In this document: piece after piece, positions 18,653 through 60,510 of the stretch
How the letters are laid out: every line of letters begins with the position of its first letter
Position numbering within the stretch: position 1 is the stretch's first letter
NCBI GenBank assembly: GCA_022823725.1
Contig: JAJEHL010000023.1
Location: forward strand, 65,561-129,560
Source: Candidatus Latescibacterota bacterium
GTDB lineage: Bacteria > Latescibacterota > UBA2968
DNA: 64,000 bases
Reading direction: 5' to 3'
The notes under the pieces: model-generated
The model's database searches: none
Told to the model about the DNA's origin: nothing
What the model saw: only the letters and a program-made list of their open reading frames with translations
Made by a program: the position numbers and the translations under genes

Positions 18653-18656
18653 GCTA

Positions 18657-19283
18657 TTACTGCTCACCGCTCTCCAAAACCGGTTTAAGCACACGCCACA
18701 CGGTTTCTGCTATAATTCGATGCCCTTCAGCATTGGGATGAATGCGGTCTGGCAGATTCAGTTCTGGAATCCCGCCAACCCCTTTTAATAAAAAGGGGAT
18801 CAAAAGCATGCCATTCTTTTCAGATAGAGCGGGGAATACCGCGCGGAAAGCAGTCGTATATACATCTCCCAAATTTGGCGGTGCTTCAATACCCATAAGT
18901 ATGATCTGAATATCTGGATACTTCTCTTTTGCGCGGTCTATAATCCCCTGCAAATTTTGCTGCATTTCAGTCGTGGGAATCCCCCGCAAACCATCATTGC
19001 CACCCAATGCCAGCACCAGCACATCGATTTTTCGCCGCAGCAACCAGTTGACTCGCCGCAACCCTCCCGCCGATGTCTCGCCACTCAGTCCGCCATTGAT
19101 CACATCAAACGCCCACCCGAGCGAATCGATCTTTGCCTGAATCAGCGCGGGAAAAGCCTGCGCTTTATCCAGGCCATAACCCGCGGTCAGGCTATCTCCC
19201 AAAAATAAAATCGTCTTGCGATCTTCTTCTGCATGAGCCGTCCATATCAATCCGAACAAAATAACGATAGTAAACCGCTTCAT
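18657..19283 (-). CDS. SGNH/GDSL hydrolase, TesA-like arylesterase/lipase, secreted
   Basis: MKRFTIVILFGLIWTAHA signal peptide. ILFLGDSLTAGYG is GDSL block I, followed by GGNDGL. The ATG at 19283 has RBS gggagag. The track ORF extends to 19379. Confidence 0.8.
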   Translation of the reverse strand: MKRFTIVILFGLIWTAHAEEDRKTILFLGDSLTAGYGLDKAQAFPALIQAKIDSLGWAFDVINGGLSGETSAGGLRRVNWLLRRKIDVLVLALGGNDGLRGIPTTEMQQNLQGIIDRAKEKYPDIQIILMGIEAPPNLGDVYTTAFRAVFPALSEKNGMLLIPFLLKGVGGIPELNLPDRIHPNAEGHRIIAETVWRVLKPVLESGEQ

Positions 19284-19724
19284 TTCATCTCTCCCATTTT
19301 CTCCCTTGACCCCAAATATGAGATTGGCTATATTTTTTGCCGACTGGCCTGTGAAAAAAACAATATTTTTGAAACGCACAGCGTTTCAGCAGTGTTGCCA
19401 TACCAGTCCACGAGGCACCTGCTTGTTCCTTCTGTCGAATTTGGCGATTTGGTGGAGGGACGAGTGGGTGCTTTTTGTTTTTCAGGAAAATTTCAATTTG
19501 TGACTTGATTGGCCCGAAGGCAACCATTTCGTGTACCAAAAAGAAAGGCCCTCGCGCGAGTTCTTGGCGGGACGGCGCGAGGACCCCAGATCACACCGAC
19601 AGGTACATGCGGTGTGTCAATGTTTTTGGGCCAACCTCTTTTCCGTTATGACGAACCCATTAAGTATTGTGTTTCAATAATATACGGGTTTTATACATTC
19701 TGTGTACTACAAATTTGATACAAC

Positions 19725-19753
19725 TTGTAAAACCGCGGCAAGTGTCGTATAAT
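19725..19753 (+). promoter_or_regulatory. sigma70-like promoter candidate upstream of recD2 (TTGTAA-17-TATAAT)
   Basis: Consensus spacing in an AT-rich stretch of the 520 bp intergenic region. The organism's sigma-factor consensus is unknown, so this is tentative. Confidence 0.25.
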
Positions 19754-19805
19754 TTTACTACTACTCCGATTACGTGATGGGAGAACGTGTTCGCCGAGGT
19801 TTTAT

Positions 19806-21980
19806 ATGGCTCAGCTTCGCGGAATTGTAGATCGCATTACATTTCAAAACGAAGAGAATGGATACACAGTTGCCCGTTTGCAGGTAGAGGGAGCTACGGC
19901 CTACAACGACCGTCTGGCGACCATTGTGGGCGAAATGTTATCGATCAACCCGGGCGAGACCGTGGTTTTGGAAGGCGAATGGACAACCCATAAGCAATAT
20001 GGCGCACAGTTCAAAATTGAATCCTACCAGACCGTATATCCATCTACCGTGGAGGGAATGCGACGGTATTTGGGATCTGGATTGATCAAAGGCATCGGGC
20101 CAGTCACAGCAAAGCGGATTGTGAATCACTTTGGGAAAGAAGCGCTCGATGTCATTGAAAACAACCCCGAGCGATTGGTCGATGTCGAGGGACTGGGGTC
20201 CAAACGCGCAAAGTGGATTATCGATGCCTGGGAAGACCAGCGCGAAATCCACAATGTCATGCTATTCTTGCAATCGCACGAAGTGGGAACGGGATACGCC
20301 GTAAAAATATGGAAGCGGTACGGACATGAAGCCGTTGAATTGATTAAAGAAAACCCCTATCGCCTATCGGTAGATGTTTGGGGCATTGGATTTTTGACGG
20401 CAGACCGCATCGCGCAAAAAATGGGCATACCCGCGCATTCAGACCGGCGCATTCAAGCCGGTCTTTTGCATGTACTCAATGAAGCCGCAGACAAAGAAGG
20501 ACATGTTTTCTTGCCCGAAGATGCGCTCATTGAATCTTGTGCCGAAGCACTTGATGTCCCTGTTGACGCAATCGCACCGTGCCTGGCCCAATTGCTCTCC
20601 GAAGAATCGATTGTCGCCAATGATGAGCGGGTGTATTTGCCCCATTTGTACTATGCCGAACAGGGCGCGGCAACGCGGTGCTATCAATTATCCCAGGTAC
20701 AACGCATTGAACTGGGCAATATCCCGGCGGAGATCAAAGTCATAGAACAGCGCGATGGGGTAACATTCGCACCCCGTCAAAAAACGGCATTGGAAAAGGC
20801 ATTGTCGCACAATTTGCTGGTATTGACAGGAGGCCCCGGAACGGGTAAAACAACGACCATCAAGGGACTCATCGCACTTTTAGAAGCGCGAAACAAAAAA
20901 ATCGCGCTGGCAGCACCAACGGGACGCGCGGCCAAACGAATGTCTGAGGCAACCGGGCATGAGGCAAAAACCATCCATAGATTGCTAAAATTCAGCCCGT
21001 CTGAAATGACGTTTGAGAAAAATTTTGAGAATCCTCTGGAGATCGAAGCTCTGATTGTCGATGAAATATCCATGGTCGATACATTTCTGATGAACAGTCT
21101 ATTGCGCGCTGTACCCATCAGTGCTTCGGTGGTCCTGGTAGGCGATGTCGATCAGTTGCCATCGGTCGGCGCGGGAAATGTGTTGAAGGATGTCATTGCA
21201 TCTGGCATTGTCGAAGTCGTGGAACTCAACGAGATCTTTCGGCAGGCACAAACGAGCCGTATCATTACCAATGCCCACGCCATCAACCGCGGCGAAATGC
21301 CATACTTGCAGAATGACCGCGATGCGGATTTCTTTTTTATCGAAGTCTCTGAACCCGATCGAGTCGTCGAGACCATTTGCGGACTGTGTGCTGCACGTTT
21401 GCCGCGCACATATCGTCTCGACAGTATTGAAGATATTCAAGTACTCGTGCCGATGTATCGCGGAGAGACTGGCGCAAACAATCTCAACCGGGTCTTGCAA
21501 GACGAGTTGAATCCCAAAGGACAAGAAATGACGCGGGGCGGTATCCGGTTTCGGGTAGGCGACAAAGTAATGCAGGTGAGAAACAACTATGACCGCGATG
21601 TTTTTAACGGGGATATTGGGCGCATTCAAGGAATAGAGGATGATATATTGCGCGTGAGATTTCAGGACCGCGTCATAGAATACGAGTTTTCGGAATTGGA
21701 CGAGTTAGTCCTGGCCTATGCCATGAGCGTACACAAAAGCCAGGGCGCAGAATTTCGCGCCGTGGTCATGCCTTTGACCACGCAGCACTATATGATGTTA
21801 CAGCGCAACTTGTTGTACACAGCCATTACGCGGGCGCGAGAACTGGTCGTGCTGGTAGGGACAAAACAGGCTCTGGGAATGGCTGTTCGCAACAACCGGG
21901 TTGCAGAACGACACACAACCCTGTCTCAGCGCATTCGAGCTGGAATTGTCGAAGAACCCGTCCAGGGAAATTTGTTGTGA
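19806..21980 (+). CDS. recD2: RecD2-type SF1B ATP-dependent DNA helicase
   Basis: 724 aa. N-terminal HhH region, Walker A LTGGPGTGKTT, Walker B LIVDEISMV, and C-terminal SH3-like and 2B domains. RBS gaggt. Confidence 0.9.
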   Translation: MAQLRGIVDRITFQNEENGYTVARLQVEGATAYNDRLATIVGEMLSINPGETVVLEGEWTTHKQYGAQFKIESYQTVYPSTVEGMRRYLGSGLIKGIGPVTAKRIVNHFGKEALDVIENNPERLVDVEGLGSKRAKWIIDAWEDQREIHNVMLFLQSHEVGTGYAVKIWKRYGHEAVELIKENPYRLSVDVWGIGFLTADRIAQKMGIPAHSDRRIQAGLLHVLNEAADKEGHVFLPEDALIESCAEALDVPVDAIAPCLAQLLSEESIVANDERVYLPHLYYAEQGAATRCYQLSQVQRIELGNIPAEIKVIEQRDGVTFAPRQKTALEKALSHNLLVLTGGPGTGKTTTIKGLIALLEARNKKIALAAPTGRAAKRMSEATGHEAKTIHRLLKFSPSEMTFEKNFENPLEIEALIVDEISMVDTFLMNSLLRAVPISASVVLVGDVDQLPSVGAGNVLKDVIASGIVEVVELNEIFRQAQTSRIITNAHAINRGEMPYLQNDRDADFFFIEVSEPDRVVETICGLCAARLPRTYRLDSIEDIQVLVPMYRGETGANNLNRVLQDELNPKGQEMTRGGIRFRVGDKVMQVRNNYDRDVFNGDIGRIQGIEDDILRVRFQDRVIEYEFSELDELVLAYAMSVHKSQGAEFRAVVMPLTTQHYMMLQRNLLYTAITRARELVVLVGTKQALGMAVRNNRVAERHTTLSQRIRAGIVEEPVQGNLL

Positions 21981-22079
21981 TAAGCAGATTGTTTTTTGAT
22001 AGCTTATATTGTCTAAAATTTTATAGTATATTATACTTGGTGTAATCTCCGTTTGAAAATTTGTATCCAGGAGGCTGGT

Positions 22080-23279
22080 ATGCTATCGAGATGGTTGGTT
22101 GTTATAGCGATAATTGTCGTTATATCAAGTGGTGTGGAAGCCACAGATATCGAGTTTGGAGGGCAAGTTCGGCCTCGCACGGAATTTCGAGATCCCGTTG
22201 GCAATGGGCACGACGTATTCACATCCATGCGTGCTCGGTTGAATATCACAGCGACTTTAGAGCAGGATGTAAATGTCTTTATTCAATTGCAGGATGTGCG
22301 GCTGTGGGGTGAAGAAACCAATACCTTCACCGATTATAATGCCGACAATTTCGATTTTCATCAGGCGTATATGGATATCAAAGATATGGGCGACACAGCC
22401 CTATCCCTTCGCATTGGACGACAGGCAATAGGATTGGGCGGACAACGGATAATCGGCGCAGTTGAATGGGCACAACAAGGGCGTGCATTCGATGGCGTTC
22501 TCGTAACTGCCAAACCCCAATGGGGCACCGTTCAAGGAGTTGGTGTTCGTCTATCCGATACCACAGCCGAAGGTATAAGCGGCAATGCCTATCTGTCCGC
22601 TTTGTATGCTACCACCTCAGGAGCGAGCACATCCGCAGATTTCTACGGCATCTACCATCACGTATCCCCCAGTGGCTCTAATAGAAGTGATAATACGCGG
22701 CTATGGACACTCGGCGCCCGCATTTACGGCGAAAAATCGAACTGGATCTACCGCGCAGAAGGCTCTTTCCAAACGGGCGAACGACGCGGACCAAACGGCT
22801 CGGCATTTATGTTTGGCGGCAGGCTGGGCACAACACTGGGCAATGGCAGCCTGACCCTGTGGTATGATTATTTATCTGGCGACGGCAATGCAAAAGATAG
22901 CAAATGGAAATCATTTGATACGCTCTTTGCAACCAATCACAAATACTACGGTTTTGCCGATTTATTTCTCAACATCCCCGTCCACACCCAAAATCTGGGC
23001 CTTCAGGACTTTGCGATAAAAGTATCCGTACCGCTGGATGAGGAAGAGCAGTTGCGTTTGGCAGCAGACGGACATGTGTTCTTCCTCGCCCAAAAAGGCA
23101 ATTTGGAATCGGGTCATCTGGCAGATGAACTCGATTTAACGCTATCATATCAATACAGCGAAAATGTAACCTTTGTCACCGGTTATACAATTGCCCTGGC
23201 GCGAGATGCAATCAAGGCATTGGGCCGATTGAACGAGAACATGCACTGGGCTTATGTGATGAGCAATGTTTCATTTTAA
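22080..23279 (+). CDS. Outer-membrane beta-barrel porin (alginate-export/AlgE-like family suspected)
   Basis: About 400 aa. Signal peptide MLSRWLVVIAIIVVISSGVEA, alternating amphipathic beta-strands, C-terminal ...NVSF. The ATG at 22080 follows AGGAGG. Confidence 0.5.
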   Translation: MLSRWLVVIAIIVVISSGVEATDIEFGGQVRPRTEFRDPVGNGHDVFTSMRARLNITATLEQDVNVFIQLQDVRLWGEETNTFTDYNADNFDFHQAYMDIKDMGDTALSLRIGRQAIGLGGQRIIGAVEWAQQGRAFDGVLVTAKPQWGTVQGVGVRLSDTTAEGISGNAYLSALYATTSGASTSADFYGIYHHVSPSGSNRSDNTRLWTLGARIYGEKSNWIYRAEGSFQTGERRGPNGSAFMFGGRLGTTLGNGSLTLWYDYLSGDGNAKDSKWKSFDTLFATNHKYYGFADLFLNIPVHTQNLGLQDFAIKVSVPLDEEEQLRLAADGHVFFLAQKGNLESGHLADELDLTLSYQYSENVTFVTGYTIALARDAIKALGRLNENMHWAYVMSNVSF

Positions 23280-46238: not shown

Positions 46239-47234
46239 ATGACAGTTGGACAAGATATTCAATTAATCAATGAACGGGTTGGGCGCGAAAGCGCGTTTGT
46301 CGATCGATTATTGTCCGAGGTGGGCAAGGTCATTGTCGGACAGCAGGACATGATTGAGCGATTGCTAATCGGCCTATTGTGCAACGGCCATGTCCTGCTC
46401 GAAGGCGTTCCCGGTCTTGCTAAAACTTTAGCCGTCAATTCATTGGCTCAGGCGATTCAGGCATCTTTTAAACGCATTCAGTTTACCCCCGATTTGTTGC
46501 CCGCAGACCTGATTGGCACAATGGTCTATCACCGGGAGACGGGCGAATTTATGGCTCAAAAAGGGCCTATTTTTGCCCAACTCGTACTCGCCGATGAAGT
46601 CAATCGCGCACCGTCAAAAGTGCAAAGTGCCATGCTCGAAGCCATGCAAGAGCGTCAAGTTACCATTGGAAACGAAACATTTGCCATGCCCGATCCCTTT
46701 TTGGTACTGGCCACGCAAAATCCCATCGAACAAGAGGGGACCTATCCACTACCCGAGGCCCAGGTTGATCGCTTTATGCTAAAAGTACGGGTAACATATC
46801 CCAATAAACAGGAAGAGCGCACCATTGTCGATCGCATGAGCCGCGATGCACCCCCTCAAATTGAGACAGTCATAACAACTGACGATCTCATTCGCGCGCG
46901 GAGTGTAGCCGACGAGATTTACGTGGATGATAAAATCAAAGACTATATCGTCGATCTCGTATTGGCAACCCGCGATCCAGAGGCTTACGGTTTGGGTGAT
47001 TTGCGCGCCCTGATCGAATTTGGCGGATCCCCACGCGCGTCTATCGCCCTGACCCGCGCTGCCAAAGCGCATGCGTTTTTGCGCCACCGCGGCTATGTTA
47101 CGCCCGAAGATGTGAAAGCCATTGGCCTGGACGTATTGCGCCACCGCGTACTGGTGACTTATGAGGCAGAAGCCGAGGAAATTAACTCCGAAGAAATCGC
47201 ACGCCAAATATTCGATCACGTTGAAGTGCCTTAA
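46239..47234 (+). CDS. MoxR-family AAA+ ATPase
   Basis: 331 aa. Walker A LLEGVPGLAKT, Walker B VLADEVNRA, AAA lid. Confidence 0.9.
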   Translation: MTVGQDIQLINERVGRESAFVDRLLSEVGKVIVGQQDMIERLLIGLLCNGHVLLEGVPGLAKTLAVNSLAQAIQASFKRIQFTPDLLPADLIGTMVYHRETGEFMAQKGPIFAQLVLADEVNRAPSKVQSAMLEAMQERQVTIGNETFAMPDPFLVLATQNPIEQEGTYPLPEAQVDRFMLKVRVTYPNKQEERTIVDRMSRDAPPQIETVITTDDLIRARSVADEIYVDDKIKDYIVDLVLATRDPEAYGLGDLRALIEFGGSPRASIALTRAAKAHAFLRHRGYVTPEDVKAIGLDVLRHRVLVTYEAEAEEINSEEIARQIFDHVEVP

Positions 47235-47301
47235 AATCAGTGAGACGTGAAAAGTAAAACGTGAGAGGGGTAGGGGGGCGTCTTACCTTTTACCGATTCC
47301 C

Positions 47302-48183
47302 ATGATTCCAACTGAAATTTTAAAAAAAGTGAAACGCATTGAGTTGCGCACGCGCAATCTGGTAAATACAATATTTGCCGGCGAATACCATTCGGTATTT
47401 AAAGGCAGGGGCATGGCGTTTGCGGAGGTGCGAGAATATCAGCCCGGCGATGATGTTCGCACAATTGACTGGAATGTGACAGCGCGTATGGGAGATCCCT
47501 TTGTCAAAGTGTTTGATGAGGAACGCGAACTCACCGTGATATTGATGGTGGATGCGAGTGCGTCGGGTGACTTTGGAACAGTGGCGCAAATGAAAGGCGA
47601 GATAGGTGCTGAGATTTGTGCTTTGCTCGCCTTTTCCGCAATTCAGAATAATGATCGTGTGGGACTGATCATTTTTACCGACGAAGTCGAATTATTTATT
47701 CCCCCAAAAAAGGGCAAAAAGCATGTGCTGCGCGTAATTCGAGAGTTGTTGTATTTTCAGCCCTCAGGACGCAGTACAAATATCGATACGGCATTGGAAT
47801 ATTTAAATCGCGTGACCTATCGGCGCAGTGTCGTGTTTCTGGTATCGGATTTTTTTGCTTCTGACTATGAGAAAGCATTGCGCGTTGCCAATCGGCGTCA
47901 TGATCTGGTAGCGATAGCGCTGGAAGATCCCCGGGAGTACGATCTGCCTGCAATTGGTATTGTGGAGTTGGAAGATGCTGAGACAGGCGAAGGTATAATG
48001 GTCGATTTTGGCGATGCAGCAGTGCGCGAGGCATTCCAAAAGCTGACAAAAAAAGAGCGCGATGACCGTGAAGCGTTATTTCGGCGTATAGGCTTAGACG
48101 CCGTAAATATTTCAACTCGTGGAGCGTATCACGAACCGTTGATGCAATTTTTCAGGATGCGGGCAAAAAAAATTAAAGGATAA
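47302..48183 (+). CDS. DUF58-family protein (vWA-like fold; MoxR partner)
   Basis: 293 aa. REYQPGDDVRTIDWNVTAR is the DUF58 signature. Its position directly after MoxR is canonical. Confidence 0.75.
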   Translation: MIPTEILKKVKRIELRTRNLVNTIFAGEYHSVFKGRGMAFAEVREYQPGDDVRTIDWNVTARMGDPFVKVFDEERELTVILMVDASASGDFGTVAQMKGEIGAEICALLAFSAIQNNDRVGLIIFTDEVELFIPPKKGKKHVLRVIRELLYFQPSGRSTNIDTALEYLNRVTYRRSVVFLVSDFFASDYEKALRVANRRHDLVAIALEDPREYDLPAIGIVELEDAETGEGIMVDFGDAAVREAFQKLTKKERDDREALFRRIGLDAVNISTRGAYHEPLMQFFRMRAKKIKG

Positions 48184-50977: not shown

Positions 50978-52825
50978 CTAATTATCATCATCCCGCTCGC
51001 TTAGCAGTTCCCCGCGCTGCAGCCGCTCCGCGTTCTCCGTGGACCACAGAATCCCCTTCATCACCTTCTGGGCGGTAATATACCGGGTCGCCGCGAGAAG
51101 GTGCATGCGTTTCTCCTCCGGATCGTCCGACAGGTCGTAGTGCCGGAACGCCACCTCCAGCACCTGGAACATGTGCAACTCCGCATCCTCGCGCAGCATA
51201 ATGTGGGCCAAAGTCTGCCTGAGTTTCGCGATATCGTACCCTTCCTCCATGTACTGGCTTACCAGCACCTCAGCCTCGAAGACCTTCTGGAAATCCGCAA
51301 ACTCCTGTAGCCGATCCAACATCTCGTCCTCAGACGCGAACGGCTCGTCCAACCGTTGTCCTTCCCTGGGCAGGCGGGCCGCTGGCATGTTGAGCCAGCG
51401 CAAATAGGTCATAAACACAGCGCCGTGGAAAATGCCGCGCAAAAGCTCTTTGCTCGGCGCCAGGTGGAAAGCGCGATAGAGGGCATGGGCGTAAGAGTAA
51501 ATATTTGCCACATCGTGCCAGTCTCCCTCATTCTTGAGGTGGAACCGCGCCGTGCGGATGGCCCCGGCATAGGTCATCGCCCGGCAGATATCCGTGGGCT
51601 TCACACCCTCGCGCAGTTTGTCTTCAATCTCGGCGACAATCGGCTCGAACTCCTCCCCCAGCAGCGTCTGAGTAAAAGCAGAAATATCCAGCGGTGCCTC
51701 ATTCTCCTGGTTCGCTTCCCACATCTCGTCCAGACGAGTGAAAATATCTTCCAGGACCGGCACGCTGTCTTCCCACCGGGCGGTCTCCTCGTGTCGTTCC
51801 CTGCCCACTAAATCTACCACAATCGGTCTCAAAATCTCATTGGCCCCTTCCCAATCTACATAATCTAAGGCCTCGAACATCTTATTCGCGAAATCGAGCG
51901 CGTGACCGTCCCCGGTAAAATAAAAGTCCGTCGCCGTGGTAAAAACGACATCTGCAATCTCTTCTGGTGAATATCCACGGTCGTACATGGTCATCAGAAT
52001 ACGCTGTGCTGCGCTGCTGCTGCGCTGATCTACCAGCCGCCGAAACCAGCGTTTGAGAGTCTCCAGGTCCGGTTCGTCCGATGTTTTGGGCAAAGGGAAA
52101 CCCTGTCGCCGCGAACCTCCTGATGTGCGTCTGGAAATCTGCGTCAGCCCGTGGACCAGGAAAAGATTGTGGTCCTTCTCATCTACATCTCCCCACATAT
52201 TTGCAGCCAGCGTCAAAATAGCCACCCCCGATGACCAACCCTCATTCGATTTATATGCTCCGTAAAAAAGTCCCTGCTGGATCATCTCCTGCGGCGTGGC
52301 GCCCGCAGCCCTTAGCGCGGTAATCGCCTTGGCAATCAGGAGCGAGCTCCGATCTTTCAAACCCTGCTCAAGAATATACTTGCCCCGGTCAATCCGCCGG
52401 CGTCTGGCCGCCTCTTTTTCGCCCGGCGCAAGCCCCACGTACAGACACCCGTCCTCCCGCACCTCCACGGGAAAGCTCTTCAGATCGTTTCCAGCTCCGG
52501 AGGTTATAAAACAGCCGCCCGTCTTAAGGTCGAACTCCCAGTGATGCCAGTGACAGATCAGGACCCCGTCCCGAACACTGCCCTCGGACATCGGATATCC
52601 CATGTGCGGACAGCGGTTATCCACTGCATTGAACCTCCCCTCGTAGCGAAAAACGGCGATGTGGGTGCCCTCCACCGTAAAAGGTTTCCCTTCGCCTTCT
52701 GCAAAATCATCAGCAGAGCACAATTTGTAATACACCAGATTGCTCGGATCCACCTCCGGAGAAACATCCAGGGTCATATCCCCGTCCTTGAGTCGATCCT
52801 GGAAACTTTGAGTAGCGATAGCCAT
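50978..52825 (-). CDS. Rieske [2Fe-2S] domain protein fused to a large (about 470 aa) uncharacterised all-alpha C-terminal domain
   Basis: The N-terminus has CPHMGYP...CHWHHWEF (CxH...CxxH Rieske ligands). The remainder is acidic and helical with no motif I recognise. The ATG at 52825 has RBS ggaggt. The track ORF extends to 52891. Confidence 0.7.
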   Translation of the reverse strand: MAIATQSFQDRLKDGDMTLDVSPEVDPSNLVYYKLCSADDFAEGEGKPFTVEGTHIAVFRYEGRFNAVDNRCPHMGYPMSEGSVRDGVLICHWHHWEFDLKTGGCFITSGAGNDLKSFPVEVREDGCLYVGLAPGEKEAARRRRIDRGKYILEQGLKDRSSLLIAKAITALRAAGATPQEMIQQGLFYGAYKSNEGWSSGVAILTLAANMWGDVDEKDHNLFLVHGLTQISRRTSGGSRRQGFPLPKTSDEPDLETLKRWFRRLVDQRSSSAAQRILMTMYDRGYSPEEIADVVFTTATDFYFTGDGHALDFANKMFEALDYVDWEGANEILRPIVVDLVGRERHEETARWEDSVPVLEDIFTRLDEMWEANQENEAPLDISAFTQTLLGEEFEPIVAEIEDKLREGVKPTDICRAMTYAGAIRTARFHLKNEGDWHDVANIYSYAHALYRAFHLAPSKELLRGIFHGAVFMTYLRWLNMPAARLPREGQRLDEPFASEDEMLDRLQEFADFQKVFEAEVLVSQYMEEGYDIAKLRQTLAHIMLREDAELHMFQVLEVAFRHYDLSDDPEEKRMHLLAATRYITAQKVMKGILWSTENAERLQRGELLSERDDDN

Positions 52826-52894
52826 AACCATACCTCCGCAAAATAGTGGCCTAAATTTACGATTCAATAGAAAATATACTGCAATTGCCATACG

Positions 52895-53050
52895 CGGTCA
52901 ATCCATCAGCCTCTCGCTTCTCATCTGTGGATATCTGCGTCCATCCCTGCTTACACCCGCAGAGCCTGCCCCGTAGTATTTGCCGTATAGAATCATTACG
53001 GCACATGCTTATACGGGGGACATGCCTGCGGATACCTCCCGCCTTTCACT
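52895..53050. repeat. Intergenic modular repeat, copy R4 (full-length with about 30 bp insertion)
   Basis: ...tctcatctgtggatatctgcgtccatccctgcttacacccgcagagcctgccccgtagtatttgccgtatagaatcattacggcacatgcttatacgggggacatgcctgcggatacctcccgcctttcac. Nested palindromes gccgta/tacggc and ccccgta/tacgggg. Confidence 0.6.
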
Positions 53051-53059
53051 CAAAAACAA

Positions 53060-53088
53060 TTGACAGGTGCTCTCCATCGCCTTATTAT
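53060..53088 (+). promoter_or_regulatory. sigma70-like promoter candidate (TTGACA-17-TATTAT) upstream of the ATP-grasp operon
   Basis: A perfect -35 hexamer and a near-consensus -10 at canonical spacing, about 50 bp upstream of the ATG at 53138. Confidence 0.3.
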
Positions 53089-53137
53089 TTTTTTATCTCC
53101 ACATCACATAAGCCATTCTTTTTTGTATGGTGAATAC

Positions 53138-54619
53138 ATGGACTTCTCATCTTATAAACTCGACGGATTTTACGACGAGCTCTTTGAATCTCCGAACAGC
53201 CCCCATCCCGGCGCGCGAGTGCTCCTCGAAAAACTCGGCGAACTCTCCAAAGACGAACTCCAAAAACGCCATCAAGCCGCCGAACTGGCCTTGATGAACA
53301 TGGGCATCACGTTCAACGTATATGGCAGCGAAGCCGGCGTTGAAAAAATTTTTCCCTTCGACATCATTCCACGCATCGTTTCTCATACCGATTGGACGTA
53401 TATCGAAAAGGGCCTCGTACAGCGGATCCAGGCCCTCAACCTGTTTCTCTGTGACATCTACGCCGATCAAAAAATCCTCAAAGACGGCATCATTCCCCGC
53501 TACGTTATCGATACAGCTAAAGAATTCCTAAAACCCTGTGTTGACCTTTCCCCACCCCGAGGCCTGTGGTGTCACATTTCCGGCATTGACCTCGTGCGCG
53601 ATAAAGACGGTCAGTTTTACATCCTCGAAGACAACCTGCGCTGTCCTTCGGGCGTGTCTTATGTGCTTGAAAATCGCGAAGTTCTCAAACGCATATTTCC
53701 GGAAGTATTTGAAGCTTCTCATGTGCGACACGTCGATGACTATCCCGCTCAATTGCTCAACACATTGCGCTCTCTATCTCCTCCCCATGTCACATCACCA
53801 ACGGTCGTTTTACTCACACCAGGCATCTACAACTCGGCCTATTTTGAACATGCCTTTCTCGCCCAACAAATGGGTATCGAATTGGTCGAAGGACGAGACC
53901 TCGTCGTTACCGATGGTACTGTGGCGATGCGTACCACCCGCGGATTCCAGCGCATTGACGTCATTTATCGACGCATTGATGCCGACTTTATAGACCCAAA
54001 AGTCTTTCGCCCCGATTCTATGCTGGGCGTCCCCGGACTCATGGAAGCCTATAAAAAAGGTCAGGTTGCCATTGCAAATGCACCCGGCACAGGTATTGCC
54101 GACGACAAGGTCGTATATGCTTATGTCCCGCAAATCATTAAATATTATCTCAATGAAGACATCCTGCTGCCCAATGTGCCCACTTATGTTTGTTGGGACG
54201 ACAAGCAGCGTGAGCATGTGCTCGAAAACCTGGACACCCTTGTGGTCAAAGCTGCCAACGAGTCGGGCGGATATGGCATGCTCATTGGCGTAAATTCCAC
54301 ACGAGCCGAACGCGAAGACTTTGCCAACCGCATCACCCAAAACCCACGCAATTATATTGCACAGCCCACCATTGCACTCTCGCGAAGCCCTATTCTGGTA
54401 GATGACCACTTTGAAGGTAGGCACGTCGATTTGCGGCCCTATGTTCTATGCAATGGCGAAGATACTTATGTCTTGCCCGGCGGGCTGACGCGCGTGGCCC
54501 TTAAAAAAGGATCTCTGGTGGTCAACTCTTCACAAGGCGGGGGTAGCAAAGACACCTGGGTATTATACGACAGTGACGATCCGTTTGTCCCGTATAGGCA
54601 CCTGTCACAAACGCACTAA
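53138..54619 (+). CDS. Circularly permuted ATP-grasp protein, type 2 (DUF404/DUF407 family), paralog A
   Basis: 494 aa. N-terminal alpha-helical region, then an ATP-grasp core with permuted order. The two paralogs align along their whole lengths (for example [17 protein letters not shown] vs YALENRTAMSRIMPTLF, and [31 protein letters not shown] vs MPGGLTRRSSEFVGPTHTFVHSKDTWII). The ATG at 53138 is the likely start. The track ORF begins at 53060. Confidence 0.8.
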
Positions 54620-54634
54620 CGCACGAGCCATATT

Positions 54635-55594
54635 ATGTTAAGTCGAGCTGCAGAATCCATTTACTGGATGAGCCGTTATCTTGAACGCGCCGAAAATGTC
54701 GCCCGCTTTATCGAGGTCAATTGTCACTTGATGCTCGACTTACCCGTTGAAGCCAAAGGGCAATGGGAACCGCTTGTACTCACGACAGGAGATCAACACC
54801 TGTTCTACGAAAACTATGCAACGGACAATCAGGCCAACGTCATCGACTTCCTGACATTTAGTCCAGTAAATCCCAATTCCATTCTCTCCTGCTTGCAAAA
54901 CGCCCGTGAAAATGCGCGTTCTATCCGAGAAATTATTTCAACGGAAATGTGGGAACAGATTAATAAATTCTACTTGCAGGTACAAAACATCGACAAACCT
55001 CAGGCACAGGATGCTCCCCATACCTACTTTACAGATATCATCATGGCCAGTCACCTGTTCACAGGCATTCAGCGCAACACCATGTCTCACAATGAAGCAT
55101 GGCAATTTGCCCAACTGGGTCGGGCATTAGAACGCGCCGATAAAACCTCGCGCATCCTCGATGTCAAATACTTTTTTCTATTGCCCGAAGGTGATGATGT
55201 GGGCACGCTCTATGACAATATCCAGTGGTCGGCATTGCTCAAATCTACCACTGCCCTCGAAATGTATCGCAAGCAATTTGGCCCTATTGAACCCCACAAT
55301 GTGATCAATTTCTTGATCTTAAACCGCGAATTTCCTCGCGCCATTCGATACTGTCTTTTCGAGGCCAATCAATCGTTGCACACCATATCGGGCACACCCG
55401 AAGGCTCTTTCCAAAACCCATCCGAACAAGTGCTGGGTCGCCTGCTCGCCGAACTGGATTACACCAGTATTGATGAAATCATCACGCGGGGTCTGCACGA
55501 ATACCTCGACGCATTTCAAACTCGGCTCAACCAGATTGATAACGCTGTTTTCGAGACCTTCTTTACGATCTCGCCTTCCACCTCAACCGCTTGA
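54635..55594 (+). CDS. Alpha-E domain protein (DUF403)
   Basis: 319 aa. MLSRAAESIYWMSRYLERAENVARFIEV is the characteristic alpha-E N-terminus. All helical. Confidence 0.75.
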   Translation: MLSRAAESIYWMSRYLERAENVARFIEVNCHLMLDLPVEAKGQWEPLVLTTGDQHLFYENYATDNQANVIDFLTFSPVNPNSILSCLQNARENARSIREIISTEMWEQINKFYLQVQNIDKPQAQDAPHTYFTDIIMASHLFTGIQRNTMSHNEAWQFAQLGRALERADKTSRILDVKYFFLLPEGDDVGTLYDNIQWSALLKSTTALEMYRKQFGPIEPHNVINFLILNREFPRAIRYCLFEANQSLHTISGTPEGSFQNPSEQVLGRLLAELDYTSIDEIITRGLHEYLDAFQTRLNQIDNAVFETFFTISPSTSTA

Positions 55595-55595
55595 A

Positions 55596-57137
55596 ATGCC
55601 CAAAACCTCATCTGAAATTGCCGATTCCGTGTTACATCATCACGGAACGGGCATTATGCCCGAAGGGTATGCCATCGAACCCGGTTCTTATGACGAAATG
55701 TGGGACCCCAAAAACGGCGTGCGCGCCCATTGGCATCCCTTTTTTTCTGCCATAGAAAACATGGGCAGCAAAGAACTGGCGCGCCGCCACCGGGAAGCGC
55801 GATTGCTGCTGCGCGAAAACGGAGTTACGTACAACGTACACGGCGACCCCGATGGCTTGCACCGCCCCGGGGAACTCGATCCCATACCTCTGCTACTTCA
55901 GGCCAATGACTGGAACCATATAGCGCGGGGTGTGTCTCAACGCGCCGAATTGCTCAACCTCGTTCTCAAAGACATCTACGGTCCCCAAACACTCATCCGA
56001 GAGGGCAGGTTGCCTTTTGAACTCATCTATAATCACGCTGGTTTTTTGAGGCCCTGCAAAGATGTCTTTCTGCCCGCCGAGCATCAATTGCGCGTCTATG
56101 CCGCCAATCTCGCGCGAGGCCCCGATGGACAGATGTGGGTTTTGTACGACCACACACAGGTGCCTTCGGGCCTGGGATACGCGCTCGAAAACAGAACCGC
56201 GATGTCGCGCATTATGCCCACCTTGTTCAACGACTGCAATGTGCGGTGCCTGGCCGATTTTTTTCGCACCTTTCAGACCGGTCTATCCGAAATTGCTCCT
56301 CACAATATCGAAAACCCCCGGACCGTCGTACTGGCCCCGGGACCTTTTAATGCTACCTATTTCGAACATGCATATCTCTCGGCTTATCTGGGTCATACCC
56401 TTGTGCAAGGCGATGACCTCACCGTGCGCGATGGGCGCGTGTGGCTCAAATCCATCGATAGCTTGCATCCCGTCGATATCATTTTGCGCCACATCAATGA
56501 CGATTTTTGCGACCCATTGGAACTCAGCGAAGAATCGCAACTCGGCGTTGCCGGGCTGCTCAATGCCGCGCGAAATGGGTACGTTGCCATTGCCAATCCC
56601 CTGGGCAGTAGCGTGCTCGAAAATCCGGGCTTGATACCTTTTTTGCCCGGCATTGCGCGACACTTACTGGGCGAAGACCTCATACTGCCCTCGGTGGCCA
56701 CCTGGTGGTGCGGGCAAGCGCGAGAAATGAACTACGTACTCGACCATCTCGACAGTCTGGTTCTCTGTCCAATTGATCAGCAATCCGTTACCCCCCGCGT
56801 TTTCGGTGCCTTGCTCAGCCGCGCCGAGCGCGAAGTCTGGCGCGATCGCATCAGAGCAAATCCCACCCGTTACGCAGGCATGGAACGCGTCAGCTTTGCA
56901 ACAGCGCCTTCTCTGATCAACGGCCATATCGAATCTCGCTACACCACCCTCACAGCCTTTGCTGTCTTCCACCAAAATGCATACTCGGTAATGCCCGGAG
57001 GCCTCACGCGCAGGTCGTCCGAATTTGTCGGCCCTACACATACGTTTGTACACAGCAAGGACACCTGGATAATTGACGATCACCATGCACGCAATACAAG
57101 ACAACTGGCACCCACACACCGAAACTTTGGCGTATGA
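55596..57137 (+). CDS. Circularly permuted ATP-grasp protein, type 2, paralog B
   Basis: 513 aa. The ATG lies 2 nt after the alpha-E stop. It shares conserved blocks with paralog A (NVHGDPDG..., IANPLGSSVLENPGL, PGGLTRR). Confidence 0.8.
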   Translation: MPKTSSEIADSVLHHHGTGIMPEGYAIEPGSYDEMWDPKNGVRAHWHPFFSAIENMGSKELARRHREARLLLRENGVTYNVHGDPDGLHRPGELDPIPLLLQANDWNHIARGVSQRAELLNLVLKDIYGPQTLIREGRLPFELIYNHAGFLRPCKDVFLPAEHQLRVYAANLARGPDGQMWVLYDHTQVPSGLGYALENRTAMSRIMPTLFNDCNVRCLADFFRTFQTGLSEIAPHNIENPRTVVLAPGPFNATYFEHAYLSAYLGHTLVQGDDLTVRDGRVWLKSIDSLHPVDIILRHINDDFCDPLELSEESQLGVAGLLNAARNGYVAIANPLGSSVLENPGLIPFLPGIARHLLGEDLILPSVATWWCGQAREMNYVLDHLDSLVLCPIDQQSVTPRVFGALLSRAEREVWRDRIRANPTRYAGMERVSFATAPSLINGHIESRYTTLTAFAVFHQNAYSVMPGGLTRRSSEFVGPTHTFVHSKDTWIIDDHHARNTRQLAPTHRNFGV

Positions 57138-58015
57138 ATTATCGCATCACACACCAGACCCACTACGAATATACAGAGACCGTGAGCCTGTGCCACAATC
57201 AAGCCCGATTGAGCCCGCGTAGTTTTTTCAATCAGACATGCTTGAATAGCCACATCGACATCGATCCACAGCCAGCATCTTTTCGCGAACGAATAGATTT
57301 TTTTGGCAATCGCGCCGCCTATTTCTCCATCGAACAACCCCACAATATCCTCTCAGTTACAGCCACAAGCGATGTGCATATCGCATCGCAAACCCAGTTG
57401 ACCAGCGATATGCCCTGGGAAACCGTGTGTCACATCCTCAAAACCACAACCGATCCCGCCCTTCTTCCAGTGCGCCAATTCGTACTCGATTCTCCCAAAG
57501 TCTATACCGAACCCGAATTGACAAAATATGCAGAACCGTCATTTTCTAAAGACCGTCCCCTCATAGAAACGGTTAGCGACCTCACCCAGCGCATCTACAA
57601 CGACTTTGAATACGTACCGGGATTCACCACCATAAGCACGCCGTTATCCGATGTGTTCAAACACCGCAAAGGCGTGTGTCAAGACTTTGCCCACCTCGCC
57701 ATCGGCTGCCTCCGCGCGATGGGTCTGGCCGCGCGATATATCAGCGGCTACCTCGAGACCCTGTCCTCTTCCGACAAAGAGCACCTGATTGGCGCGGATG
57801 CCTCCCACGCATGGTTCTCTGTGTACCTGCCCAATCACGGCTGGATCGACTTTGACCCAACCAACAACCTCATCCCCCCTGACCGGCACGTCACCTTAGC
57901 ATGGGGCCGCGACTTTGCCGACGTCACCCCTCTCAAAGGTGTGGTCATAGGCGGTGGTCAACACGCGCTTACCGTATCTGTCACCGTAGAACCGATTTTG
58001 TGCCTGATTAAATGA
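57134..58015 (+). CDS. Transglutaminase-like cysteine peptidase/ligase with Bact_transglu_N domain
   Basis: 293 aa. N-terminal MNYRITHQTHYEYTETV is Bact_transglu_N. The core GVCQDFAHLAIGCLRAMGLAARYISGY carries the catalytic Cys, followed by DASHAWFSVYLPNHGWIDFDPTN with His and Asp. ATGA overlap with the upstream gene. Confidence 0.85.
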   Translation: MNYRITHQTHYEYTETVSLCHNQARLSPRSFFNQTCLNSHIDIDPQPASFRERIDFFGNRAAYFSIEQPHNILSVTATSDVHIASQTQLTSDMPWETVCHILKTTTDPALLPVRQFVLDSPKVYTEPELTKYAEPSFSKDRPLIETVSDLTQRIYNDFEYVPGFTTISTPLSDVFKHRKGVCQDFAHLAIGCLRAMGLAARYISGYLETLSSSDKEHLIGADASHAWFSVYLPNHGWIDFDPTNNLIPPDRHVTLAWGRDFADVTPLKGVVIGGGQHALTVSVTVEPILCLIK

Positions 58016-58037
58016 AGTGAACTAATCAAAATAAAAC

Positions 58038-58072
58038 AGTCCTACCGAATCCGATAGGACTATTATTTTTTT
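58038..58072 (+). terminator. Rho-independent terminator after the ATP-grasp/TGase operon
   Basis: agtccta-ccgaatccga-taggact stem-loop followed by attattttttt. Confidence 0.5.
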
Positions 58073-58085
58073 GCTGTGTTTTTAC

Positions 58086-59198
58086 TCACGCCTCTACAAC
58101 CGCTTTCATAACCGTCACCTTCTCCAGACGTTCGGGAATCAGATCAAATCCAACGCCTGGTGTTTCATCCAGCACCACATTGCAATATTCATCCTGCTCA
58201 ATCCACCGATCTGTAATATCTTCAACGTAAAACTTGCGGGAGGGAAACACATCTGCCGGATAGTTAAATCCCGGTAACGTACCCAGCGCCGCACAAATCC
58301 CGGCACCAACACCACTCTCTAACATCCCACCCACCCACGCATCCATCCCCGCATCGCGTGCCATGTCGTGAATTTTCACGGCATTTAACAAGCCGCCCAC
58401 GCGGCCGGGTTTCACATTGATCACGCGACATGCGCCAATTTTCAGAGCGAGTTCAAAATCCCGTGGACGTTTAACCGACTCATCCAAACACACAGGCGTT
58501 TCAATTTGGCTTTGCAACTCCGCGTGCTCAATCAGATCCAGATGATCTAAGGGCTGTTCAATCATCGCCAAATTGAACTGATCAAATGCCTTGAGCGTGT
58601 CAAAATCCGCATTTAAATCATATCCCGAGTTGCAATCCACATGAATCACCGGATCGGGAAAAGCCGAGCGCACGGCCTTGAGCATCTCAATATCCCATCC
58701 GTGTCGCACCTTCAACTTGATACGCGGATACCCCGCATCCACAGCCCCCTGAATCAGCGATAAAAGTTCATCAATCGTATCCTGCACGCCAAAATCAGCA
58801 CCACATGCCACCGCAGAATCGGTCGCACCCAGCGACTGCCAGAGCGGTATATCCTTCAACACGCTATCCAATGCCCACCACGCGGTCTCCACAGCCGCTT
58901 TGGCAAAAGGATTGCCTTTAAACACCGCAATCCGCGCCAACAGTTCCGCCGCCGTCTCTATCTGCTCCCCCACCATAAGGGGCAAAAAAAACTCCCGCGC
59001 CGTTTCGTAAACAGATCGGGCCGACTCGGACGAATAAGTCGGCGCGTAAAACGGCGTAGCCTCACCCCAGGCAGCGGTCCCTCCACCCGAAAGTTTAACC
59101 ATCACCGAATGAATCGTCGCATCCTCACCATAAGCCGTGCGCCACGGCGAAATCAGCGGCAACTCGACATATCGAATCTCTGCTGCATCAATTTTCAC
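58086..59198 (-). CDS. Enolase-superfamily enzyme, MR/MLE subgroup (OSBS / N-acylamino-acid racemase / dipeptide epimerase-like)
   Basis: 370 aa. N-terminal capping domain. KLKVRHGW KxK motif. Metal ligands in the IEQPL, DESV and D contexts. C-terminal barrel strands. Confidence 0.8.
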   Translation of the reverse strand: MKIDAAEIRYVELPLISPWRTAYGEDATIHSVMVKLSGGGTAAWGEATPFYAPTYSSESARSVYETAREFFLPLMVGEQIETAAELLARIAVFKGNPFAKAAVETAWWALDSVLKDIPLWQSLGATDSAVACGADFGVQDTIDELLSLIQGAVDAGYPRIKLKVRHGWDIEMLKAVRSAFPDPVIHVDCNSGYDLNADFDTLKAFDQFNLAMIEQPLDHLDLIEHAELQSQIETPVCLDESVKRPRDFELALKIGACRVINVKPGRVGGLLNAVKIHDMARDAGMDAWVGGMLESGVGAGICAALGTLPGFNYPADVFPSRKFYVEDITDRWIEQDEYCNVVLDETPGVGFDLIPERLEKVTVMKAVVEA

Positions 59199-59406: not shown

Positions 59407-59952
59407 TTATTCAACCACATCAAAATCATGGAAATCTTCACCGGCTTCGAGTGATAGGATTTCCAGAGCGGTCGCGGCACCCTGCCCTGCGGAAATAATT
59501 GCCTGCGTGCGGATGAGGCGCGTATTCCAACCCACTGCAAAAAGCCCCTCAACCGAAGTGCGACCATCGCCATCGGCAACAATACCCTTGTTCTCCTTAG
59601 CCAAACTCAGATCCTCGGCCAATTTGGTATTTGTGCCAGTGGCTAAAATGAGATACTTACCCTCTCTTCGATCTCCATCCGCCGTTGTAACCGCAAAACC
59701 GCCATCGGTCTTTTCGGCATCGGTCACTTCTACATCCTCAACTGTGCCGCCCAAATTCTGGACCTGTGCCCGCCCTACCCGCTGAAACTCACTCCCCGTC
59801 ATCTCGGGAATGCCCAGATAATTGTAAAGCATCGCCTTGTGCATCGGCGTCCCATCTTGCCCAAACACCGTCACATTCTGACCATTCTTCGCCAAAAACA
59901 ACGCGGCACTCAACCCCGCAGGCCCATCGCCTATAATCAAAACATCTGCCAT
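59407..59952 (-). CDS. Compact FAD-binding oxidoreductase (thioredoxin-reductase-like FAD domain without an NADPH domain)
   Basis: 181 aa. VLIIGDGPAGLSAALFLAKNG is the N-terminal dinucleotide motif. The C-terminal GLFAVGWNT resembles the TrxR GxFAAGD FAD motif. There is no second Rossmann insert. Confidence 0.6.
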   Translation of the reverse strand: MADVLIIGDGPAGLSAALFLAKNGQNVTVFGQDGTPMHKAMLYNYLGIPEMTGSEFQRVGRAQVQNLGGTVEDVEVTDAEKTDGGFAVTTADGDRREGKYLILATGTNTKLAEDLSLAKENKGIVADGDGRTSVEGLFAVGWNTRLIRTQAIISAGQGAATALEILSLEAGEDFHDFDVVE

Positions 59953-59989: not shown

Positions 59990-60256
59990 TTAGACGTATT
60001 GCTGTCCTGTCAATATTATCCGTGGTGTATGAACAATGCCCAGCAAGCCATCGATTGACAAATCCTCGTCAATTAACGGCCAGTGAATGCCGTAACCCGA
60101 GGGAGAAATCTCATACATATTTCTCGCTTCGACAGATGCCTCCTGCAATGCTGGTGAAATCTCACTGAGCACAAACTTTTTTGTTTCCCCATCAATGGTT
60201 ACAAACATTTCATCACCATTAAAATGAAGGTCTCTTACATCGTGATATTTTTTCAT
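59990..60256 (-). CDS. DUF2442-family small protein
   Basis: 88 aa. Ends ...GYGIHWPLIDEDLSIDGLLG, matching the DUF2442 WP.lDeDis..gLl signature. Confidence 0.65.
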   Translation of the reverse strand: MKKYHDVRDLHFNGDEMFVTIDGETKKFVLSEISPALQEASVEARNMYEISPSGYGIHWPLIDEDLSIDGLLGIVHTPRIILTGQQYV

Positions 60257-60510
60257 TGTCGGCGCCTCCGTTCAAACGCATCCCATTCCTGTTCAATATA
60301 TTCAAAATGTTCAAAAATGATCTTCTTAATTTCTCTGCGATCTCGGGGTGATAAATTAAAAGCATAAGCTTCTTCGAGATCAAAATTTTCTCTGTCGAGC
60401 CAATATTTGCATTCTCTTTCTCCTTTTCTGCAATGAATATGAGCCGGCTCATTACCTTCATTGGAAAAAAAGAAAAGTCGCCAGCCTGAAATCAATAGTA
60501 TTGTTGGCAT
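60253..60510 (-). CDS. DUF4160-family small protein
   Basis: 85 aa. Starts MPTI and contains PAHIHCRKGE (conserved MPTI...PPHFH). ATGA overlap with the DUF2442 gene. Confidence 0.65.
   Translation of the reverse strand: MPTILLISGWRLFFFSNEGNEPAHIHCRKGERECKYWLDRENFDLEEAYAFNLSPRDRREIKKIIFEHFEYIEQEWDAFERRRRQ

Follow-up and report, generated by a model that had tools for sequence, protein, structure and literature searches.

A reduced hybrid of two ATP-grasp/alpha-E/transglutaminase modules in a Candidatus Latescibacterota bacterium, with one predicted ligase and one predicted non-catalytic ATP-grasp partner

Gene sets encoding a circularly permuted (CP) ATP-grasp protein, an alpha-E protein and a transglutaminase-like protein were predicted by Iyer et al. 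(2009) to form a peptide ligase and peptidase system, possibly one for peptide tagging (as summarised in PMC3495828, PMC5666114 and PMC6376114). Here we describe a four-gene operon of this kind within 64,000 nucleotides (nt) of DNA from a Candidatus Latescibacterota bacterium (assembly GCA_022823725.1, contig JAJEHL010000023.1, positions 65,561 to 129,560, forward strand); this whole stretch is called the window below, and coordinates are those of the window unless a relative is named. A first-pass annotation of the window had presented the system as one predicted by comparative genomics and having no assigned substrate, and the searchable literature agrees. In the type-1 Anbu operon of Pseudomonas, Yersinia, Cytophaga and other bacteria, genes for a CP ATP-grasp, an alpha-E and a transglutaminase are found together with Anbu (PMC5666114, PMC6376114); the Yersinia ATP-grasp protein of this type (A-type) releases phosphate from ATP (PMC6376114), and in P. 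putida nitrogen limitation induces Anbu (PMC5666114, PMC6376114). In Burkholderia cenocepacia, the genes I35_5080-83, which encode DUF404/407 ATP-grasp and DUF403 alpha-E proteins, each on its own, together with a transglutaminase and a 'large' transglutaminase, are strongly sigma-54/NtrC-dependent (PMC5491218), and in marine metagenomes the CP ATP-grasp, alpha-E and transglutaminase domains co-vary in abundance with urea-metabolism domains (PMC3597751). The other arrangement, the type-2 module, consists of a DUF2126 gene, a B-type ATP-grasp fused to an alpha-E domain (alpha-E2), and a transglutaminase of a second type (TG2). Rv2566, Rv2567 and Rv2569c of Mycobacterium tuberculosis are presumably an example of this module (see also PMC2588565), with which we also group the B. 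cenocepacia genes. As judged by sequence, the window operon is a reduced hybrid of the two arrangements, with a type-1 front (genes A and alpha-E1) and a type-2 back (genes B and TG2).

The features of the locus are as follows.
53060-53088, forward strand: sigma-70-type promoter-like site TTGACA-17-TATTAT, matching 11/12 consensus positions, 50 nt 5' of the A start codon
53138-54619, forward strand: gene A, CP ATP-grasp (Pfam CP_ATPgrasp_2, E=1.6e-169)
54635-55594, forward strand: gene alpha-E1, stand-alone alpha-E (PF04168, E=2.8e-104, profile positions 1-294 of 294)
55596-57137, forward strand: gene B, CP ATP-grasp paralogue (CP_ATPgrasp_2, E=4.7e-142)
57075-57089, forward strand: scar of the in-frame alpha-E2 deletion in B, junction type J1, reading ...IDD-HH-ARNTRQLAPTHRNFGV and then the stop codon
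57134-58015, forward strand: gene TG2, transglutaminase-like (Bact_transglu_N, E=6.2e-28, and Transglut_core, E=2.4e-20)
58035-58075, both strands: hairpin with T-runs on both strands, with a 13-bp stem at 58035-58064 (terminator scan, reverse strand 58064..58035)

The open reading frame (ORF) listing and the Pfam scans agree with the first-pass annotation on four tightly coupled genes at these positions, and profile searches recover all four of the families that it had named (E from 1e-20 to 1e-169). The A stop codon and the alpha-E1 start codon are separated by 15 nt; the ATG of B sits 2 nt past the last base of the alpha-E1 stop codon, and the stop codon of B overlaps the start codon of TG2 as ATGA (57134-57137), the latter two spacings being just as first described. 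We conclude that the four genes are a real operon of a widespread system, predicted to consist of an amide ligase and a thiol hydrolase. None of the four proteins has a model in NCBIfam, and none matched the PADLOC defence-system models at E<=1e-3. For comparison, two syntenic relatives, L001 and L002, were available on metagenome contigs of 5.67 and 5.66 Mb, of which L001 has about 89% nucleotide identity to the window, and members of the 90% clusters of B are labelled by NCBI as Gemmatimonadota metagenome-assembled genomes.

The first-pass annotation had described the ATP-grasp gene as duplicated. The two proteins are 34% identical, and their nearest relatives place them in different families. 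The A protein matches the solved structure 3N6X (Methylobacillus Mfla_0391) with E=2.4e-165 over residues 30-478, which by sequence is an ortholog-level match and makes A a protein of the 3N6X/Anbu-operon type, whereas the match of B to the same structure is far weaker (E=9.6e-81). When B was used as the query against 5.8 billion proteins, essentially all of its best homologues, apart from a few very close relatives, were fusions of about 850 amino acids (aa) with an ATP-grasp and a C-terminal alpha-E domain; the nearest are 826-876 aa long. The identity of B is 47-52% to fusion proteins of many phyla and 87% to the protein P0001. The fusion proteins from each of the 80 loci surveyed below match B with 445-605 bits, and by score B fits the B type better than the A type. 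On this sequence evidence, B belongs to the Rv2567-type (type-2) ATP-grasp subfamily, and A and B represent two old subfamilies drawn from two different modules, so that no local duplication is involved. The same division holds for the other two genes. TG2 scores 220-400 bits against TG2-type proteins and about 50-65 bits against the TG1 type (e.g., L081 11450-12265), and alpha-E1 scores 724 bits as alpha-E1 type vs 40 bits as alpha-E2 type. Alpha-E1 carries the ER motif (YLERAE), residues E17, R18, E20, R24, R98, R167 and R235 are invariant across the alpha-E1 and alpha-E2 types, and the best 120 homologues listed are all at least 58% identical to it. The AlphaFold2 (AF2) model of alpha-E1 is all-helical with a predicted local distance difference test (pLDDT) score of 88.6; a sequence search gave no solved homologue, and a structure search gave none beyond generic helical bundles. 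The ratio of nonsynonymous to synonymous substitution rates (dN/dS) for alpha-E1 is 0.10-0.13. From the gene order we infer that the stand-alone alpha-E1 is the partner of A.

The wider family was surveyed in one genome per species (GTDB representatives), which were scanned with an alignment of the fusion proteins; this returned 80 loci, whose ORFs were then classified. The B-type domain was fused to alpha-E in 80/80 loci, with a TG2-type transglutaminase directly 3' of B in 73/80. A DUF2126 gene was present in 60/80 loci and stood directly 5' of B in 53/80. This gene encodes about 1,100 aa, with a Bact_transglu_N/Transglut_core N-terminus followed by DUF2126 (a 'putative amidoligase' in Pfam). 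Gene A lay within 8 kb in 23/80 loci and a stand-alone alpha-E in 24; the order A, alpha-E1, DUF2126, B-alphaE, TG2 was seen in 9/80, including Poribacteria, and an order ending in TG2, A, alpha-E1 in 8/80. A distinct, shorter transglutaminase, TG1, sometimes lies 3' of A and alpha-E1, as in the classical type-1 Anbu-operon order. In none of the 80 loci did A and alpha-E1 abut B without DUF2126, an arrangement that was seen solely in the window and its close relatives. The ORFs of the 64-kb window yielded no DUF2126 homologue, nor did the L001 and L002 loci, and the operon contains no Anbu, TG1 or second alpha-E, although no search aimed at Anbu was made in the rest of the window. Like the type-1 operon, the window locus has an A protein of the 3N6X type with intact motifs and a stand-alone alpha-E gene directly after it; unlike it, the window operon has a terminator and a convergent gene after its last gene, where no Anbu is found, its transglutaminase is of the TG2 type, and B is inserted between the alpha-E and the transglutaminase. 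Like the type-2 module, it has B and TG2 as defined by sequence, with TG2 directly 3' and overlapping by 4 nt; unlike that module, it lacks DUF2126, the alpha-E of B is deleted, A and alpha-E1 abut B, and B carries Cys and Thr in place of a Lys and an Arg. The operon had been put forward as a good specimen of the system, a description that has to be revised, since it is an atypical, reduced form without DUF2126, the second alpha-E, TG1 or Anbu.

The two ATP-grasps also differ in their predicted active sites. We aligned 26 A-type and 203 B-type sequences; the motifs of A were mapped onto the classical ATP-grasp site by sequence analogy together with a sub-threshold ATPgrasp_YheCD match, which was seen for A only. 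Asp151 (in GxDLV), Glu164-Asp165-Asn166, Lys371 (in VVK), the SGGYG loop, Asp431-Leu-Arg433, DDK and the SSQGGG motif, all carried by A, are invariant in 26/26 A-type sequences, and appear to be the circularly permuted counterparts of the Mg-site strands, the ATP-binding Lys and the flexible loop of ATP-grasp enzymes. The pairwise dN/dS of A is 0.09-0.11 (0.109 for the window-L001 pair). A is predicted to be an active carboxylate-amine ligase, and it alone of the two ATP-grasps looks catalytically competent. At the position of Asp151, 152 of the 203 B-type sequences have Asp and 45 have Asn; Glu164 is replaced by Gly, Asp, Ser, Asn, Ala or Arg in the B family, and Asn166 by Arg in 188/203. The B family further has Val, Ile or Leu for Asp431 and ENP for DDK, its SSQGGG motif is divergent (consensus SNQxGG), and the SGGYG loop is not conserved among the 203 sequences. 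Two of the residues are mostly kept, Lys371 in 170/203 and Arg433 in 183/203. In the B protein of the window, N171, Y184, H186, C391 and T453 align with D151, E164, N166, K371 and R433 of A, and the Gly loop is lacking; the clade of the window has therefore gone beyond the rest of the B family in changing Lys to Cys391, Arg to Thr453 and Asp to Asn171. Many residues are nevertheless invariant in both subfamilies, including P-S-G, Y-x-L-E-N-R, P-G-G-L-T-R and S-K-D-T-W. With neither the Gly loop nor the E-x-N that binds Mg, both absent from its family, B is predicted to be non-catalytic, and in the window clade it probably no longer binds ATP. The presence of ATP-grasp catalytic residues, to which the first-pass annotation had tied its case, thus stands for A, which has all of them, and falls for B, which is missing the Glu and Asn that bind Mg, the Lys that binds ATP, the Gly loop and an Arg. 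The dN/dS of B is 0.205 (window-L001), 0.135 and 0.119, showing that B is under purifying selection and is not a pseudogene.

Comparison with the relatives showed how B came to be short. In L001 and L002 the gene order is A, alpha-E1, a B-alphaE fusion (848 and 826 aa, respectively) and TG2. By blastn, window 53038-57079 corresponds to L001 7403-11466 and window 57080-57996 to L001 12489-13406, with about 1,020 nt missing from the window between the two blocks. At the protein level, L001 reads ...SKDTWVIDD-RPESYT...(alpha-E)...YFSH-ARNTRQLAPTHRNFGA, and the window reads ...SKDTWIIDD-HH-ARNTRQLAPTHRNFGV. The B gene of the window is therefore an in-frame deletion derivative from which the whole C-terminal alpha-E domain is gone. 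The first-pass annotation had the alpha-E gene sitting between two copies of the ATP-grasp; alpha-E1 instead belongs with A, and B derives from an ATP-grasp/alpha-E fusion of its own. The deletion junctions fall into several types.
J1: IDD[R/H]H-ARNTRQLAPTHRNFG, in the window, P0162, P0165 and P0169
J2/J4: ID[G/D][H/R]P-HRNFGA, in L083, L084 and P0005
J3: IDDQPESYT-THRNFGA, in L085
J1 has ARNTRQLAP and lacks PESYT, and J3 shows the reverse. Since J1 and J3 each keep a segment that is lost in the other, neither can derive from the other, and at least two independent deletions must have occurred; a single deletion event is ruled out by this junction logic, which is a stronger argument than the tree. 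The latter, a neighbour-joining tree without bootstrap, places the full-length P0001 among the deleted forms, which is weak evidence. Taken together, the junction sequences indicate that alpha-E2 was probably deleted three times independently. All junction variants lie in the same four-gene operon of related genomes, and every deletion retains the last 6-16 codons of B, with the TG2 start region. The alpha-E-less B proteins are 482-513 aa long and make up about 60 clustered variants with no frameshifts or stop codons. Their clusters (24, 15, 15 and 3 members) come from ENA, Logan and NCBI assemblies with contigs of up to 6.03 Mb, and an assembly artefact as the cause of the short B is ruled out by the occurrence of several clusters from three assembly sources, including the 6.03-Mb contig.

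Variation was also observed at the other end of B. Near the N-terminus (residues ~11-20, 55596-55670), the window protein has a 9-residue His-rich insertion, SVLHHHGTG, relative to L001; the N-terminal 36 residues are modelled at pLDDT <50, and several members of the B clusters have small deletions at residues ~60-70 (ARLRENGVTYNGD). In sequence, therefore, the N-terminal region is variable too.

TG2 matches the solved 'putative cysteine protease' 3ISR (E=1.3e-18), and its motifs GVCQDFAH, SHAWF and DFDPT align with GVCRDFAH, FHACF and IFDAT of that protein. The catalytic triad, which had been annotated as intact, is indeed complete: Cys182 (57677-57679), His225 (57806-57808) and Asp241 (57854-57856) are present and are invariant in 75/75 TG2 sequences. 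The dN/dS of TG2 is 0.15-0.25; purifying selection is seen on each of the four genes. The 4-nt stop/start overlap between B and TG2 recurs in 35/75 loci, and most of the others have a gap or overlap of <20 nt.

The AF2 model of B (pLDDT 69, moderate), a protein with the fold of A, has 3N6X as its best structural match (E=2e-33), followed in the Foldseek search by eukaryotic glutathione and homoglutathione synthetases, YgiC/YjfC, GspSA, trypanothione synthetase and the E-64 ligase Cp1B. In E. coli GspSA, the amide made by an ATP-grasp synthetase is cleaved again by a papain-like Cys amidase, and eukaryotic glutathione synthetase is a circularly permuted ATP-grasp as well. The window system resembles GspSA, trypanothione synthetase and glutathione synthetase in belonging to the same fold family and in the synthetase/amidase logic that we propose for A and TG2. 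Unlike in that group, to which identity is only ~10-14%, the thiol enzyme is here a separate protein of transglutaminase rather than CHAP fold, and nothing in the group corresponds to alpha-E or to a pseudo-ligase. The system is likewise comparable to the TTL polyglutamylases with the CCP/TGL peptidases, to RimK and to PafA/Dop (PMC3495828, PMC2588565), in which an ATP-dependent carboxylate-amine ligase is genetically paired with a possibly reversing peptidase or amidase, the parallel on which the original prediction drew; unlike these, the window system has no known tag gene, target or modified protein.

On these grounds we propose that A, together with alpha-E1 as an obligate accessory, would activate a substrate carboxylate with ATP as an acyl-phosphate and join it to an amine, giving an amide or isopeptide bond. 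As glutathione and glutathionylspermidine synthetases are the nearest relatives of A in structure, a whole protein would be a less likely substrate than a short peptide or a metabolite of the amino-acid or polyamine type. TG2, through Cys182-His225-Asp241, would hydrolyse or transamidate the bond made by A or a related amide bond, the two forming a GspSA-like pair, and B would be kept as a non-catalytic partner, held in a fixed ratio with TG2 via the ATGA overlap, e.g., as a substrate- or product-binding subunit. Nitrogen-limitation induction elsewhere suggests that the system may serve nitrogen salvage or storage; here it would be expressed from a conserved sigma-70-type promoter. This reading as a whole, a reduced two-module hybrid with A as the sole ligase, B as a non-catalytic partner and TG2 as an amidase, is the one towards which we lean, with a confidence that lies only a little above the halfway mark.

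A different scheme, in line with the first-pass annotation, has two active ligases working in succession, for example to build or extend a tag or metabolite of two or three residues, with alpha-E shared between them and the transglutaminase editing or transferring the product. In its favour, A and B are both full CP_ATPgrasp_2 matches under purifying selection, they have in common many residues that are invariant in the two subfamilies, and outside the window clade the Lys and Arg are kept by most B-type proteins. The scheme has to explain, however, how B could catalyse without the E-x-N Mg ligands, the DDK motif, the Asp of DLR and the Gly-rich loop, to which the window clade adds the loss of the Lys, the Arg and the first Mg-site Asp, and in 53/80 type-2 loci a DUF2126 ligase lies directly 5' of B, so that B need not be the catalyst in those loci either. 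We regard two ligation steps as distinctly unlikely. If B is inactive, it might be a decaying remnant, with A, alpha-E1 and TG2 doing the work and the B frame surviving only for the ATGA-coupled start of TG2. Such decay would fit the stepwise stripping of the locus, in which DUF2126 is absent from L001, L002 and the window and alpha-E2 was then deleted recurrently (at least 2-3 junctions), the retention by all deletions of the last 6-16 codons with the TG2 start region, the loss of further active-site residues in the clade, and a window-L001 dN/dS of B (0.205) about twice that of A (0.109). The values of 0.12-0.21 over about 490 codons are nonetheless far under neutrality and similar to those of TG2 (0.15-0.25), no frameshift or stop codon occurs in the ~60 variants, none of the deletions removes the grasp-like domain, and coupling by itself needs no 490 conserved codons; decay of B is accordingly an unlikely explanation.

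A third possibility concerns the substrate: A and alpha-E1 may ligate an amino acid or peptide onto proteins (cf. TTL, RimK and PafA), with TG2 removing the tag and B reading the tag or target. Tagging was predicted by Iyer et al. 2009 (via PMC3495828, PMC5666114, PMC6376114), type-1 operons usually end in the proteasome-like Anbu, proteins or peptides are the usual substrates of transglutaminase-fold enzymes, and Rv2569c degrades proteins in vitro. On the other hand, no tagged protein has ever been reported, such neighbourhoods contain no small conserved tag ORF (PMC2588565), and the 245-nt region 5' of A has none either, its 82-aa ORF lying mostly in 52903-53037, which blastn did not align to L001; the closest solved ATP-grasp structures are all small-molecule or short-peptide ligases, and the operon has no Anbu. 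We consider protein tagging possible, though doubtful. The deletions of alpha-E2 allow one further reading, as a natural deletion series: after loss of DUF2126 from the locus, alpha-E2 was deleted independently at least 2-3 times and the ATP-grasp-like domain of B was kept each time, as if alpha-E were a dedicated cofactor of an active ligase (alpha-E1 for A, alpha-E2 for DUF2126 and not for its own fusion partner) and B a conserved pseudo-ligase that binds substrate or product for the transglutaminase. This we put forward as speculation and think rather unlikely.

Several points weigh against the reading of A as sole ligase with B as a non-catalytic partner and TG2 as an amidase. No ligation product has been measured for any member of the family, the biochemistry of the A type being ATP hydrolysis alone. 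The non-catalytic status of B is deduced from motif loss, with the motifs mapped by sequence analogy; the pLDDT of 69 gives only moderate confidence in the B model. B-type proteins outside the window clade mostly keep the Lys (170/203) and Arg (183/203) and may bind nucleotide or use a non-canonical site. The absence of DUF2126 refers to the locus and the 64-kb window. The partnerships of A with alpha-E1 and of B with TG2 are deduced from gene order alone, and the type-1 link to the proteasome-like Anbu argues for protein or peptide substrates. The M. tuberculosis gene beside Rv2567, Rv2569c, is presumably the TG2-type gene of that locus. Rv2569c was reported as a broad protease, sensitive to PMSF and AEBSF and insensitive to E-64 and NEM (PMC11081392), a profile that does not fit a simple Cys amidase. 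A Yersinia pull-down with Anbu as the sole bait gave no specific partner among the operon proteins (PMC6376114). Rv2411c and Rv2567 were negative for gamma-aminobutyric acid (GABA)-trehalose synthesis, the sole activity assayed, in a recent M. tuberculosis preprint, a result that is uninformative on their true function.

The promoter-like TTGACA-17-TATTAT site and the hairpin/T-run terminator were both found at the positions first annotated. The former is the best such match of its region (11/12). Both hexamers and the A-tract before the -35 hexamer are invariant in the window, L001 and L002, while the flanks are divergent, and such conservation amid diverged flanks is better evidence than a consensus match alone. 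The intergenic region 52892-53137 contains no sigma-54 consensus (TGGCAC-N5-TTGCW, up to 2 mismatches), and sigma-54-like sites across the whole window number 49 vs a chance expectation of 40 +/- 6. NtrC-type control as in Burkholderia is thus unsupported here, there being no sigma-54 site 5' of A. The hairpin carries a T-run on the forward strand and an upstream A-run that is a T-run on the reverse strand (sequence ...AAAATAAAACAGTCCTACCGAATCCGATAGGACTATTATTTTTTTGC), and is likely a bidirectional intrinsic terminator common to TG2 and the convergent gene. Its spacing is not kept in L001, where the 3' end of TG2 and the convergent MR/MLE gene overlap by 26 nt.

The operon is flanked, as first described, by a divergent Rieske-fusion gene and a convergent gene of the enolase superfamily (MR_MLE), and it had been suggested that either neighbour could supply or process an amino-acid-derived substrate. 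We scanned 83 loci, and homologues of both genes lay beside the system in the window and L001 only, with 0/80 among the representative loci and none in L002. In Pfam scans, both were also found in L083, and MR/MLE also in L084 and L085. The substrate-supply idea is rejected, since within the sequences examined these genes are linked to the system only in the window and its closest relatives; they offer no clue to the substrate. The MR/MLE gene (58086-59198, reverse strand) passes the TIGR01928 o-succinylbenzoate synthase (OSBS) cut-off of NCBIfam (247.1 vs 200.65 bits), so its product is probably of the OSBS/N-succinylamino-acid-racemase type rather than a generic racemase. The Rieske-fusion protein (50978-52891, reverse strand) has 637 aa, with a Rieske [2Fe-2S] domain at residues 54-130 and a C-terminal portion of ~480 residues without any Pfam family above the curated cut-off; L001 and L083 have a conserved 615-aa counterpart, and L002 has none.

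Further from the operon, 5 kb upstream (46239-48183, forward strand), a MoxR-type AAA+ ATPase gene (AAA_3, bpMoxR) is followed by a DUF58/VWA gene and then by an ABC transporter pair. This block is syntenic in L001 and L002, and L083 has just a cut DUF58/VWA end and the ABC pair. MoxR-vWA pairs have been linked to transglutaminase-like peptidases (PMC3495828); no such peptidase adjoins the MoxR-vWA pair here. Beyond the MR/MLE gene, a 181-aa ORF (59407-59952, reverse strand) gives a partial match to the Pyr_redox_2/FAD-oxidoreductase profile, and its equal size in L083 and L084 indicates a conserved short form and not a local truncation. It is followed by a DUF4160/DUF2442 small-gene pair (59990-60510, reverse strand), in whose slot relatives carry HipA/Couple_hipA (L001 14738-16191), PIN (L083 11746-12419) or PhdYeFM and HicA (L085 5018-6686), so that the slot looks like a variable toxin-antitoxin islet. 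In L001, several Ser/Thr kinases fused to ankyrin repeats and a PP2C phosphatase adjoin the locus (16312-22547); ankyrin-fused kinase and phosphatase genes are often reported in sponge-symbiont genomes.

What the locus shows is a reduced form, specific to its lineage, of a system already known by prediction; it is neither categorically new nor a key to what that system does. The system is found in many phyla (Mycobacterium, Pseudomonas and Burkholderia among others) and about 17 years after its prediction is still without a known substrate. If the deletion-series reading is true, the operon would have a ligase/pseudo-ligase/thiol-hydrolase architecture not described before for this system. It is the smallest natural version seen, with one predicted ligase, an alpha-E, a pseudo-ligase and a thiol enzyme, which would make it handy for reconstitution, and the full-length and independently shortened B genes in an otherwise identical operon are ready-made constructs on the role of alpha-E. 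For annotators, 'two ATP-grasp paralogues' at such a locus should not imply two ligation steps. For the family as a whole, the lack of the catalytic Mg site in the Rv2567 family (203 sequences) suggests that A, and DUF2126 where present, should be treated as the ligases, and B as a non-catalytic partner.

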